A stretch of 64,000 nucleotides of DNA from an uncultured Planctomycetota bacterium (GTDB lineage: Bacteria; Planctomycetota; Planctomycetia; Isosphaerales; Isosphaeraceae), in assembly GCA_963845755.1 (NCBI GenBank), contig CAWJTV010000025.1:96001-160000 (forward strand), given 5' to 3'. Positions 1 to 4,270 of this stretch are shown here, one piece after another. A model generated the notes under the pieces. That model saw only the letters and a list, made by a program, of their open reading frames with translations, ran no database searches and was not told where the DNA came from. The first letter of the stretch is position 1; each line of letters begins with the position of its first letter. The position numbers and the translations under genes were made by a program.

Positions 1-3000
1 GTACTGGGCGACGGCCGTCGAATTCTGAGCGAGGTAGGCTTGCTCGGCGACCGGGTTGGTGACGAGGTACTGCTGGAAGACCGCCGGGCTGCTGCTGAGG
101 TATTGCTGGAGCGCGGCGGTGTTGCTGCCGAGGTACTGTTGGAGGACCGTCGGATTGCTCACCAGGAATTGCTGCAAGGACGCCGGGTTGCCGGCGATGT
201 ACTGCTGCAACACGGTCGCGTTGCTGGCCAGGAACTGTTGCAGGACCGTGGGGTTGCCCAGGATGTATTGCTGGAGCGTGGTGGGGCTGCTCCCGAGATA
301 CGCCTGCAAGACCCCTGGGTTCTGATTGATGAAGGACTGGAGCGACCCGATGTGGCCCGCCAAGTACGACTGAAGGCTGGTGTTGCCCCCTTGCAGGTAG
401 GCCTGATTGGCCGCGGAGTCGCTGGCGAGGTACGCGTTCAAGGCGGCTGGGTTCGAGGTGAGGTAGGCGCCGATGCTGGCAACGTTCTGCTGGATGTACG
501 ATTGCTGGGCCGTGTTGTTGCTGCCGAGGTACTGCTGGATGATCGTGGGGCTGCTGACGAGGTATTGCTGCAACGCAGCCGGTTCGCCGGCCATGTACTG
601 CTGGACAACCGTGGGGCTCAAGGAAAGGTATTGCTGGAGCGTCGTCGGGTTGCCCGAAAGGTACTGCTGCAAGGTGGACGGGTCGCCGCTCAGGTATTGC
701 TGGAGGATGGCCGGGTCGCCCGCCAGGTACGCCTGGAGGCCCGTGCCGCCCCCTTGCAGGTACGCCTGGTTGGCAGCCGAGTTGCTGCCGAGGTAGGCAC
801 TCAAGCTGGTCGGGTCGGTGGCGAGATACGCCTGGAGGCCGGCGGGGCCGCCTGAAGTGTACGCCTGATTGGCCGCGCTGTCGGTGGCGAGGTAGGCGCT
901 CAAGCTGGTCGAGTTGGCCGTCAGGTAGGCCTGGACGCCGGCGCCGCCCCCTTGCAGGTACGCCTGATCCGCCGCGGAATTGCCGCTCAGGAAGGCGCTC
1001 AAGGAGGCGGGGTTGGTGGCGAGGTACGCCTGGAGCCCGGCACCACCGCCTTGCAGGTAGGCCTGGTTGGCCGCCGAGTCGCTGCCGAGATAGGCGCTCA
1101 GGCTGGCCGGGTTGCCGACGATGAAGGCTTGAAGGACTCCGGGGTTGCTGCTCAGGTAGGCCTCGAGCGAGGAGACGCCCGACTGCAAGTAGGCCTGGTC
1201 GGCCGCGGGGTTGCTGTCCAGGAAGGCGCTCAGGCTGGTGGAGTTCGCAACCAGGTAGGCGCTCACCCCCGCGGGGTCCGACTGCACGTACGCCTGGGTC
1301 GCGGCCGAGTTGCCTGCAATGTACTGGGCGACGGCCGTGGCGTTCTGCTGGAGGTAGGCCTGGAGGCCGGTCGGAGAGCTGGCCAGGTACTGCTGGAGGA
1401 CCGTCGGACTGCCGCCGAGGAACTGCTGGAGCACGCTCGGATTCGCGGAGAGGTACTGCGACAGGGCGGTCGGGTTGGCCAGGAGATACTGCTGGAGGAC
1501 GGTCGGGTCGCCGGTCAGGTAGGCCTGGAGGCCGGAACTGCCGCCTTGCAGGTAGGCCTGATCGGCTGCCGGGTTGGTGCTGAGGAAGGCGCTCAAGCTG
1601 GTCGGGTTCGTGACCAGGTAGGATTGCAAGCTGGCGCCGCCGCCTTGCAGGTAGGCCTGATCGGCCGCCGGGTTGGTGCTGAGGAAGGCGCTCAGGCTGG
1701 ACGGGTTGGTGAGGAGATACGCCTGGAGTCCGGTCGAGCCGTTGGTGAGGTAGGCCTGGTTGGCCGCCGAGTCGCTGCCGAGGTAGGCGCTCAGGCTGGT
1801 CGGGTTGTCGGCCAGGTAGGCCTGGAACCCCGTAACACTTCCTTGCAGATAGGCCTGCTTCGCCGCCGAGTCGCTGCCGAGGTAGGCGCCGAGGCTGGCC
1901 GGGTTGCTGGTCAGATACGCCTGGAGGCCAGTGCTGCCCCCCGTCAGGTAGGCCTGATTCGCCGCGGAGTTGCCACTGAGGAAGGCGCTCAAGCTGGACG
2001 GATCGGTGACGAGATACGCCTGGAGGCCGGCGCCGCCGCCGAGCAAGTAGGCCTGATTGGCCGCGGAGTCGCTGGCGAGGTAGGCGGTCAAGCTGGTCGG
2101 GTTGCCGCCGAGGAATGCCTGGAGTGAGCCGGGGTTGGTGCTCAGGTAGCCCTGGAGGCCGGTGCCACCCCCTTGCAGATACGCTTGATTGGCCGCCGAG
2201 TTGCTGCTGAGGTAGGCGCTCAAACTGGCCGGGTCGGTGGCGAGATACTGCTGGAGACCGGTCGAGCCGTTGGTGAGGTAGGCCTGATTGGCCGCGGGGT
2301 CGCTGCCGAGGTAGGCGCTCAAGCTGGTCGGATTGCTGCTCAGGTAGGCCTGGAGCCCGGTGCCGCCCCCCGTCAGGTAGGCCTGGTTCGCCGCGTTGTT
2401 GCTCCCGAGGTAGGCGCTCATCGCGCCGGGGTTGGCGACGAGGTAGGCCGAGACGGCGGCGGAGTTGGCTGCCAGGTAAGCCTGCTGGGCGGAGGGGTTG
2501 CTTGCAACGTAGGCCGAGATGGCGGCCGAGTCCTGGCTCAGGAACGCCTGCTGCGCGGCCGGGCTGCTGGCGATATAGGCCGAGACGGCGGCGGAGTTCG
2601 CGGCCAGATAGGCCTGATCCGCGGCGGAGTTGCCCGTGATGTACTGGGAGATGGAAGTCGCGTTCTGCTCGAGGTACGCCTGCTCGGCCGATGGGTTGGT
2701 AATGAGGTAGGCCGCAAGGCTGCTGGGGTTGCTGTTGAGGTACTGCTGGAGGGCCGCCTCGTTGCCGGCGAGGTATTGCGACAGCGCCGTCGGGTTGCTC
2801 TCCAGGTACTGCTGGAGGACCGTCGGGTCACCCGCCAGGTAAGCCTGCAAGCCGGTGGCGCCCCCTTGCACGTAGGCCTGCTGGGCTCCCGGGTTGCCGC
2901 CGAGGAAGGCGCTCAAGCTGGACGGGTTCGTGATCAGGTACGACTGGAGGCCGGAACCACCCCCTTGCAGATACGCTTGATTGGCACCCGGGTTGCCGCC

Positions 3001-4270
3001 GAGGTAGGAGCTGAGGCTGGCCGGGTCGGTGGCGAGATACTGCTGGAGACCGGTCGAGCCGTTGGTGAGGTAGGCCTGATTGGCCGCAGCGTCGGTGGCG
3101 AGGTACGCATTGAGGCTGGCCGGGTTGTCGATCAGGTAGGCCTGGAAGCCGGTCTCGCTTCCAGTCAGGTAGGCCTGATTGGCCGCCGAGTTGCCGCCGA
3201 GGTAGGCGCTCAGGCTGGCCGAGTTGCCGATCAGGTAGGCTTGGAGGGCGGTGTTGCCCCCTTGCACATAGGCCTCGTTCGCGGTGGGGTTGCCGCTCAG
3301 GAAGGCGCTCAAGGAGGCGGGGTTGGTGGCGAGATACGCCTGGAGCCCGGCACCACCGGCTTGCAGGTAGGCCTGATTGGCCGCCGAGTCGCTGCCGAGG
3401 TAGGCGCTCAAGCTGGTCGGGTCGCCGCCGATGAAAGCCTGAAGCGTTCCGGGGTTGCCCGTCAAGTACCCCTGGAGACCGGTGCCGCCCCCTTGCAGAT
3501 ACGCTTGATTGGCCGCCGAGTTGCTGCCGAGGTAGGAGCTGAGGCTGGACGGGTCGGTGGCGAGATACTGCTGGAGACCGGTCGAGCCGTTGGTGAGGTA
3601 GGCCTGATTGGCCGCGGGGTCGCTGCCGAGGTAGGCGCTCAAGCTGGTCGGGTTGCTGCTCAGGTAGGCCTGGAGGCCGGTGCCGCCCCCCGTCAGGTAG
3701 GCCTGGTTCGCCGCGTTGTTGCTCCCGAGGTAGGCGCTCAAGGCGGTGGGGTTGCTCGCGATGAAGGCCGAGACGCCCGTGGGGTCCGCCTGGAGGTACG
3801 CCTGCTGCGAGGCCGGATTGCTCGCGATATAGGCCGAGACACCCGTGGAGTTCTGGCTCAGGTATGCCTGCTGCGCGGCGTTATTGCCGGTGATGTACGC
3901 GGCGACCGACGATGCGTTAGCTTCGAGGTACGCCTGCTCGGCGTCCGGGTTGCTGGCGATGTACTGGGCGACCGCCGTCTGATTCTGCTGGAGGTACGCC
4001 TGGGCCACGGCCGGGTTGTCGGCGATGTACTGGGCGACCGCCGAAGAGTTCTGGCTGAGGTACGCCTGCTGCGCCGCCGAGTTGCCCGCGACGTACGCGG
4101 TGAGAGCCGCCTGGTTCGAACTGAAGAAGGCCTGGACGGACGTGGGATTGACGGCGATGTACTGGGCGAAGGCCGTCGCGTTGGCCTGGAGGTAGGCCTG
4201 CTGCGCGGCGATGGAGCTGTTCAGGTAAGCCTGTGCGGCCGTCGCGCTGCCGGTGACATAAGCGTTCACC
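1..4270 (-). repeat. Coding tandem repeat, 33 nt / 11 aa, about 130 units in window
   Basis: Minus-strand translation e.g. LSAYLGSNNAA-NQAYLTGGGTG-LQAYLSSNPTS. Tyr codons spot-checked at 1, 34, 1321, 2641, 3961 and 4258 all fall at 1+33k (4257 = 129 x 33). Confidence 0.95.

Follow-up and report, generated by a model that had tools for sequence, protein, structure and literature searches.

A long array of strictly phased 11-residue repeats, possibly short capped helices, in a giant secreted-type protein of an uncultured soil Planctomycetota bacterium

The array of 11-residue units described here is encoded by a giant gene of an uncultured soil Planctomycetota bacterium (assembly GCA_963845755.1) and can be compared with several described classes of repetitive or helical proteins. 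The window that we analysed is a stretch of 64,000 nucleotides (nt) of contig CAWJTV010000025.1 (C25:96001-160000), from a genome of 14.27 Mb in 49 contigs that is 87.9% complete by marker genes; coordinates without a prefix refer to the window, and those prefixed L008 to the part of the same contig adjoining its start. STI1/DP-type modules (Sti1/Hop DP, PF17830; UBQLN1, PF23195; Ddi2 HDD, PF24669) are discrete cytosolic modules of 55-70 residues and five or six helices, found in eukaryotic co-chaperones and shuttle factors. They resemble the array in short helices that start from D/N-P and in Q/L-rich strings of the type 'NP-x-x-L-Q-Q-x-L', but here ~245 strictly 11-residue units occur in a bacterial protein of secreted type, and no single stretch passes the corresponding models. 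Apolipoproteins A1/A4/E (PF01442) share the 11/22-residue periodicity and the Pro residues at unit borders; their helices have charged polar faces and bind lipid, whereas the array, with 1 Lys and 0 Arg in 1419 residues, remains below the 90-bit cut-off of the family. The TALE-like protein BurrH (4cja_A, E 0.1, not significant) has a 33-residue super-repeat and an 'N-G-G-G'-like loop in common with the array; TALE units, however, bind DNA and comprise two long helices in each 33 residues, while three Y-L motifs per 33 residues are present here. The likeness to the extenders of giant adhesins lies in the layout, in which a tandem array of great length is set among the other modules of a giant surface protein: region II of the ice-binding adhesin of Marinomonas primoryensis is described as ~120 copies of a 104-residue repeat that account for most of the protein size (PMC4083281). 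Extender arrays of this kind are well known, but they are built of folded domains of ~100 residues (Ca2+-dependent immunoglobulin (Ig)-like beta-sandwiches), whereas our unit has 11 residues, is predicted to be helical and lacks a Ca2+-binding acidic motif. A comparison of planctomycetal genomes reports genes >5 kb in 29 of 29 and genes >20 kb in 15 of 29, and most of these giant genes are said there to encode surface proteins or polyketide synthases/nonribosomal peptide synthetases (PMC5177795), so that a gene of 24 kb is not unusual in this phylum.

The array lies in a single minus-strand frame (10233..1, 3411 amino acids (aa), termed P0001), which leaves the window at its start and translates without any stop codon. 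The frame was retrieved by listing open reading frames (ORFs) with open ends; it had been missing from the ORF track behind the sequence-only reading that first described the repeat, probably because frames that leave the window are unlisted unless open ends are requested. From residue 1990 (window position 4266) to window base 1 the frame comprises 129 complete units in one phase, without a single insertion or deletion, which bears out the earlier claim of more than 1400 aa of an 11-mer with a recurrent hydrophobic/aromatic motif. It had also been noted that six spot-checked Tyr codons stand at positions 1+33k, with no net indel. The strict phase is confirmed, as all 130 codons at these positions (k = 0-129) specify Tyr (113) or Phe (17); the codons at k = 130 and 131 specify Ser and Ala, which places the start of the array at ~4266 and not at 4270. 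The array and its internal higher-order copies are arranged as follows:

1..4266, minus strand: 11-residue array within the window, 129 complete units plus 3 residues at the beginning of a further one (P0001 residues 1990-3411), free of stops and indels
2716..4035, minus strand: higher-order copy 1, 40 units, 440 aa, delimited by identity at lag 440, 73% identical to copy 2 at the protein level
1396..2715, minus strand: higher-order copy 2, 440 aa, used as query of the second structure prediction
76..1395, minus strand: higher-order copy 3, 440 aa, 52% identical to copy 2

The unit has the consensus Q-A-Y-L-x-(G/S)-N-P-(A/T)-(A/S)-L. Across the 129 units, position 3 is invariably aromatic (Y 112, F 17) and position 4 is Leu or Ile in 120 (L 105, I 15); position 7 is N, D or G in 116 (N 71, D 23, G 22), position 8 is most often Pro (63) or Ser (31), and the remaining preferences are Q (85) or S (29) at position 1, A (92) at position 2 and L (69) at position 11. 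The composition is restricted: of the 20 residue types 17 occur, and A, S, L, Q and G account for 64% of all residues. Neither Cys nor Trp occurs in the 1419 residues, and the charged residues amount to 33 D, 11 E, 1 H and 1 K with no R at all, in agreement with the near-absence of basic residues reported from the sequence. Units differ from one another at ~60% of positions. Residue identity at lag 11 is 0.381, compared with 0.106 +/- 0.008 (maximum 0.128) in 1000 shuffles, so the 11-residue periodicity is far above the chance level. Two further levels of organization are superimposed on the unit, a 33-residue super-repeat (lag identity 0.468) and a 440-residue higher-order repeat (0.472), and Tandem Repeats Finder reports periods of 33, 66, 99, 132, 198, 231, 297 and 330 nt over positions 51-4096. 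Copy 3 of the 440-residue repeat is less regular than the others and is enriched in units of the form 'QQYL-x-x-NP-x-x-L'. The G+C content at third codon positions (GC3) is 0.895 in the array and 0.868 in the non-repeat portion of the same frame, and a crude ratio of nonsynonymous to synonymous substitutions (dN/dS) among the three 440-aa copies is 0.37-0.64. The lag-11 periodicity, the GC3 value and dN/dS below 1 together indicate that the frame 10233..1 is truly coding. The repeat DNA contains several further long open frames, for instance one of 703 aa on the plus strand (2173..4284).

The array continues off the window, as had been anticipated, to contig position ~92,143, giving a total of ~245 units and ~2,700 residues; the off-window part contains one phase slip of 1 residue and three frame breaks of the assembly. 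When the frames across all breaks are taken together, the gene extends from contig position ~110,144 to 85,871, i.e. over ~24.3 kb or ~8,090 codons. Two portions precede the array within the window:

10161..14144, minus strand: N-terminal part, frame of 1327 aa, an Arg-rich leader that terminates in 'LEDRRLMS', then beta-helix modules that carry choice-of-anchor Q domains
4267..10233, minus strand: non-repeat portion upstream of the array, parallel beta-helix-like modules that each close in choice-of-anchor Q, then ~80-aa repeats and a conserved pre-array segment

The N-terminal frame matched Beta_helix (65 bits, cut-off 25.9) and choice_anch_Q (145.2 bits, three stretches), and the latter family was also found in the frame 10233..1 (97 bits, cut-off 25, two stretches); the pre-array segment is common to the homologues P0002, P0003 and P0060. 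Downstream of the array the order is a conserved linker ('LNLFRLNVTLPGSGNEATGG...'), a metzincin-type HExxHxxGxxH motif ('HEAGHTLGLEHMD'), a PPC-like region, a sub-threshold Big_3_5 match, YDG domains, a sub-threshold MBG_2 match and a C-terminal domain that matches sedolisins in PDB (E 2.7e-15). A search of the metalloprotease-like part against solved structures gave no match. This combination of Beta_helix, choice-of-anchor Q, YDG, metzincin-type and sedolisin domains suggests a giant product of secreted or cell-surface type, as the sequence-only reading had supposed, and the array occupies the place of an extender, flanked on one side by the N-terminal part and on the other by the distal functional domains of a putatively exported protein. 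Both putative proteases would sit at the far end of such a spacer.

Two features of the non-array parts deserve mention on their own. Between the beta-helix modules and the array, the minus-strand frame contains 3.7 copies of a 240-nt (80-aa) repeat ('...NDLTVNGNASFGGDVGDAGAGLFALNSLTVTGTT...', window 5570-6447), for which no family was found. Off the window, the regions L008:5871-7472 and L008:9137-12148 would bring two protease types together in one protein, with the metzincin-type motif and the sedolisin-like serine-carboxyl peptidase domain at the C-terminus.

The assembly interrupts the giant gene by six frame breaks over ~24 kb, four of which are defined as follows:

10386..10415, minus strand: frame break in a G run, separating the frame 14144..10161 from the frame 10233..1
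L008:13826-13840, 14421-14435 and 14950-14964 (contig C25:93,826-94,964): identical one-base insertions inside paralogous repeat copies

Across the break in the G run, the sequence '...LLPGSPAIGG' in one frame resumes as 'AALNGVTTDQRG...' in the next. A single-base insertion with an identical 12-nt context (AGCTTGAGCGCC read as AGCTTCGAGCGCC) accounts for each of the three breaks in the off-window part of the array, and the same 20-mer is present in five other copies without the insertion; long-read sequencing or polishing seems to have erred here in a context-dependent way within repeats. We aligned contigs of four soil-metagenome runs from one study to L008:8800-15300; the runs contain only 0.06-0.13 of the sampled words, and use was made of them solely where a contig matched this region. 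At L008:13833 short contigs from two runs omit one letter, the inserted base of the third break, and at L008:9822 one contig omits one letter, corresponding to the break near contig position 89,822. Thus, the extra base of the assembly is absent from the short-read contigs at both covered breaks (2/2); the coverage did not extend to those near contig positions 94,95x, 94,42x and 89,2xx or to window 10,386-10,415. A Ser/Thr protein kinase gene in the same window (16,180-16,360, minus strand) is split near 16,310, just ahead of the HRD catalytic-loop motif ('...LAYAHAR'), kinase genes at ~20.5-22.3 kb show similar splits, and the contig of the nearest relative also has a frame break. On account of the missing base at the two covered sites, the kinase genes broken alike and the broken contig of the relative, we read the breaks as long-read indel noise and regard the gene as probably intact. 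The sequence-only reading had named stop codons or loss of phase in the whole frame as evidence that would speak against it: the frame is clean within the window, but it is broken off the window, and the two breaks that are covered are assembly errors. Programmed ribosomal frameshifting at the three identical insertions was considered and rejected, because at the single covered site the extra base is missing from short-read contigs of two separate runs. A joint in run X4 ('skips 686') was left unused, having only 24 letters on one side and lying inside the repeat. The interpretation of the breaks as sequencing noise is relevant to the annotation of this genome.

The repeat is not confined to this gene. 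HMMER, run with a 363-residue query over 1.84 billion cluster representatives, returned 58 matches at E <= 0.001, 22 at 1e-10 and 7 at 1e-30; the best of them are fragments of proteins that share the same architecture, and some of the weaker ones are unrelated eukaryotic repeats. A word-indexed search revealed eight giant homologues (2921-5624 aa, ~39-151 units each), named 'hypothetical' or 'DUF4214 domain-containing' in the databases. Using the linker module that follows the array as query, we found two loci in our genome collection. One of them (L009, 65% identity), from a metagenome-assembled genome labelled uncultured Planctomycetota, encodes in an intact frame of 3287 aa an array followed by the linker module; the array is 1518 aa long (138 x 11) and shows several local phase changes. 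The other (L010) is a distant relative of the C-terminal module (32% identity); here the open frame that encodes the module carries 'GGADDD' repeats ahead of it, and 11-residue units were not seen. This arrangement fits an exchangeable spacer. Among 120 other genomes of the same family, four carry the array, each in an open frame of 3429-6533 aa with the array preceding the linker module, and intact frames of homologues range from 3287 to 6533 aa. In its own genome, by tblastn, the repeat is confined to the giant gene, apart from one further weak match on contig C36 (47.8 bits). Across 13 homologues of ~36-44% identity, neighbouring Y/F-L motifs are exactly 11 residues apart in 83-100% of pairs and the consensus QAYL-x-x-NP-x-x-L recurs; the retention of both the exact spacing and the consensus at this level of divergence suggests that the unit is likely under structural constraint.

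One homologue, P0003 (2975 aa), contains a second flavour of the unit, ~50 near-identical 11-mers ('SSFLGSNPTTV / SSFLGTSSTAA / SSFLGSVATSV') with a 33-residue super-repeat, which come after beta-helix-like repeats and the same pre-array segment.

No named family was found to cover the array, in keeping with the statement of the sequence-only reading that it recognised none. In the Pfam and NCBIfam scans of P0001 no model reaches its cut-off over the array, the best sub-threshold scores being STI1-HOP_DP 25.8 bits (cut-off 29.1), F54D1_6_C 25.2 (27), Ddi2_HDD 18.7 (32.8) and UBQLN1 14.2 (27). Some homologues exceed the cut-offs with their whole-sequence scores (P0060, P0065, P0067, P0068 and P0002 for STI1-HOP_DP and/or UBQLN1): for STI1-HOP_DP P0060 reaches 36.7, P0065 34.7 and P0068 32.4 bits, and for UBQLN1 the values are 26.9-40.5 bits (40.5, 33.5 and 32.5 among them). 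No single stretch passes in any of these cases, which means that the scores add up from numerous short pieces of similar composition. The only Pfam resemblances that recur on the array are all-helical motifs (STI1/DP, ubiquilin and Ddi2 HDD). The Apolipoprotein family was not listed for P0001 at E values up to 1 and scores 22.8-34 bits in the homologues (cut-off 90), and the Pfam scan found no Ig family on the array. Searches of PDB by sequence gave nothing significant (best E 0.1 for BurrH, 4cja_A; an ApoE chain at E 0.66), nor did a profile search of PDB with the repeat (best E 0.27), and the ESM Atlas returned no usable match, with a low recognition value of 750. In the literature, searched mostly at the level of titles and abstracts, we found no description of this 11-residue repeat. 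PARCEL repeats, which are encoded by palindromic DNA and described as a 25-residue amphipathic motif (Roske et al. 2010, PMC2996958), were ruled out by their unit length. We conclude that the repeat is a real family without annotation, outside Pfam, NCBIfam and PDB.

Structure prediction points to helices of low confidence. Two AlphaFold2 runs used alignments built from array segments without mutual overlap, taken from the window, from L008 and L009 and from fragments in the databases. A 264-residue segment gave 18 helices at a mean predicted local distance difference test (pLDDT) of 65.5 and a predicted template modelling score (pTM) of 0.32, and the 440-residue higher-order copy 2 gave 36 helices at pLDDT 51.5 and pTM 0.25; both models contain about one helix of 9-10 residues per unit and no strand. 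Neither of these low-confidence models defines how the helices would pack. A Foldseek search of PDB with the first model yielded no match at E <= 0.001 (best E 2.8), and VIA-align against 48,161 chains none at Z >= 5 (best Z 4.2); the second-best match of the latter was the Ddi2 HDD domain (Z 4.0, 74 residues, root mean square deviation 4.8), which is in the noise range for helical models. For three copies of the 264-residue segment, complex prediction gave a score of 0.00 (mark 0.42) and left even the fold of the segment uncertain, which speaks neither for nor against self-association. The earlier proposal of a short helix plus an N-P/G turn in every unit agrees with both runs. Models of this confidence, without a significant fold match, neither establish nor exclude the proposed rigid alpha-solenoid in which Tyr/Leu ladders would stack. 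The accompanying argument against a hendecad coiled coil is supported: given that position 8 is Pro in 63 and position 7 N, D or G in 116 of the 129 units, with G and N flanking the Pro, a continuous 11/3 coiled coil is unlikely, and the predicted helices break in nearly every unit. An N/D/S followed by P/S is a classic N-cap pattern of helices, and the G/S/T at the end of each unit presumably fits a helix cap as well.

We propose, with about as much doubt as confidence, that the array is a chain of short capped helices and acts as an extended spacer, nearly devoid of charge, within a giant secreted protein of multi-enzyme or adhesive type. The array belongs to the central part of one very large gene, the product of which would be secreted or located at the cell surface. 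Each unit would most likely fold as a two-turn alpha-helix that starts at the N/D/S cap followed by Pro or Ser, ends at Gly/Ser/Thr and carries Leu-11, Tyr-3 and Leu-4 on one face; the units would be grouped into the 33-residue and 440-residue repeats, and the array as a whole would keep the C-terminal module (metzincin-type motif, PPC-like and Ig-like regions, sedolisin protease) at a distance from the cell or from the beta-helix rods of the N-terminal part. Several observations weigh against this proposal. No residue in either AlphaFold2 run reaches pLDDT >= 90, and the predicted helices pass through GGG(T/S)G segments, which is physically doubtful. The hydrophobicity spectrum of the array (Eisenberg scale) has an amplitude of 0.162 at the strand-like period of 2.2 residues and 0.062 at the helix-like period of 3.67, the putative 9-residue helix has equal moments (0.20) at 100 degrees and at 160-180 degrees, and mean Chou-Fasman propensities are equal for helix (0.98) and strand (1.01), so these tests fail to separate helix from strand. 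The prediction of export derives from domain types, four of the six breaks lie outside the short-read coverage, so that the gene may be interrupted, and the same-genus genome G046 (87% complete) yielded neither array nor linker module with these queries, making the giant protein dispensable at the genus level. A more specific form of the proposal, a new class of ultra-short helical solenoid with three two-turn N-capped helices per 33-residue coil, a Tyr/Leu ladder core and a rod of tens of nm, appears doubtful to us; with three helices per 33 residues and a rise of ~1 nm per coil, ~82 coils would make, by rough inference, a rod of ~80 nm.

Other explanations were weighed against the chain of capped helices. 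The array could be a flexible tether, i.e. a linker of low complexity that is mostly disordered, or helical only for short times, and acts as an entropic spring; its motif would have arisen from repeat amplification together with weak local preferences. The low pLDDT and pTM values, the restricted composition and the poor recognition by ESM Atlas speak for such a linker, but it would not readily account for Tyr/Phe fixed at position 3 and Leu/Ile nearly so at position 4, for a unit length of exactly 11 residues in most motif pairs of homologues ~40% identical, for the absence of indels among units so divergent, or for dN/dS below 1 between the higher-order copies; on balance we consider it rather unlikely. 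By analogy with STI1 or with the Pro-punctuated 11/22-mers of apolipoproteins, the units could instead form amphipathic helices whose Leu/Tyr face binds hydrophobic material (lipid, particles, polymers or other copies of the protein), which would make the array adhesive and not a passive spacer. This explanation draws on the sub-threshold matches to STI1-HOP_DP, UBQLN1 and Ddi2_HDD in P0001, the whole-sequence scores above cut-off in some homologues, the weak Apolipoprotein matches and the 11/22/33 periodicity with Pro at unit borders; given that the former scores are sums with no passing stretch, that the Apolipoprotein cut-off of 90 bits is far from reached and that the polar face is uncharged, unlike in apolipoproteins, an adhesive array of this kind seems distinctly unlikely.

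A beta-solenoid or amyloid-like fibre was considered as well, in which 'L-Q-A-Y-L' would form a five-residue strand and 'x-G-N-P-x-x' an arc; each triangular coil would take up three units (33 residues), and ladders of Asn would line its corners. Hydrophobicity does alternate along L11-Q1-A2-Y3-L4, with the 2.2-residue harmonic exceeding the 3.67-residue one, Y and L at positions 3-4 have a high strand propensity, the 33-residue super-repeat would supply the coil, and N-P and G-G turns stand at fixed places. Against this, both AlphaFold2 runs are devoid of strand, the array is rich in Ala, Gln and Leu, its database resemblances are to helical motifs, and the beta-helix modules of the very same protein use a quite different repeat rich in Gly, Asn and Thr, so that we hold a beta structure to be very unlikely. 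Finally, six frame breaks in ~24 kb and the existence of other long open frames in the repeat DNA, such as that of 703 aa, could be taken to mean a decaying pseudogene or a frame that is open merely through repeat composition. The short-read contigs lacking the extra base at the covered breaks, the kinase gene broken alike near ~16,310 (pointing to assembly noise), the intact frames of the homologues, the GC3 of 0.895 and dN/dS below 1 speak to the contrary, and a dead gene appears extremely improbable.

Two observations concern the surroundings of the giant gene. The next gene downstream (L008:86-5435, minus strand) encodes another large protein of secreted type (~1,400+ aa), whose frame is likewise broken and which contains FG-GAP/VCBS-like repeats; its leader reads '...WLEDYVLLSA', similar to 'LEDRRLMS' in the giant gene. 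We also found a dispersed palindromic element of ~90-120 nt (window 21,3xx-21,6xx, 27,277 and 28,121; also L008 ~5,2xx), with a near-perfect stem of ~40 predicted pairs, ~26 of them contiguous (RNA fold -91 kcal/mol), and 167 blastn matches over 30 of the 49 contigs. It often lies within open frames, reading '...GERGASAPC...GQGADAPRS...', and resembles REP (repetitive extragenic palindromic) or MITE (miniature inverted-repeat transposable element) sequences.

What sets this protein apart is ~2,700 residues of 11-mers in strict register, a register that is kept among homologues at ~40% identity, and neither a family model nor a solved structure nor a confident prediction covers the array. A solenoid of three helices per coil, if real, would have the shortest period of any known alpha-solenoid and would offer a natural scaffold with almost no charge, conserved in a limited set of giant exoproteins from soil Planctomycetota. 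As a flexible chain, the array would represent an unusual uncharged tether, and if its units stack into a regular rod, they would constitute a new and very economical repeat architecture, relevant to the structural biology of repeat proteins and to protein design.

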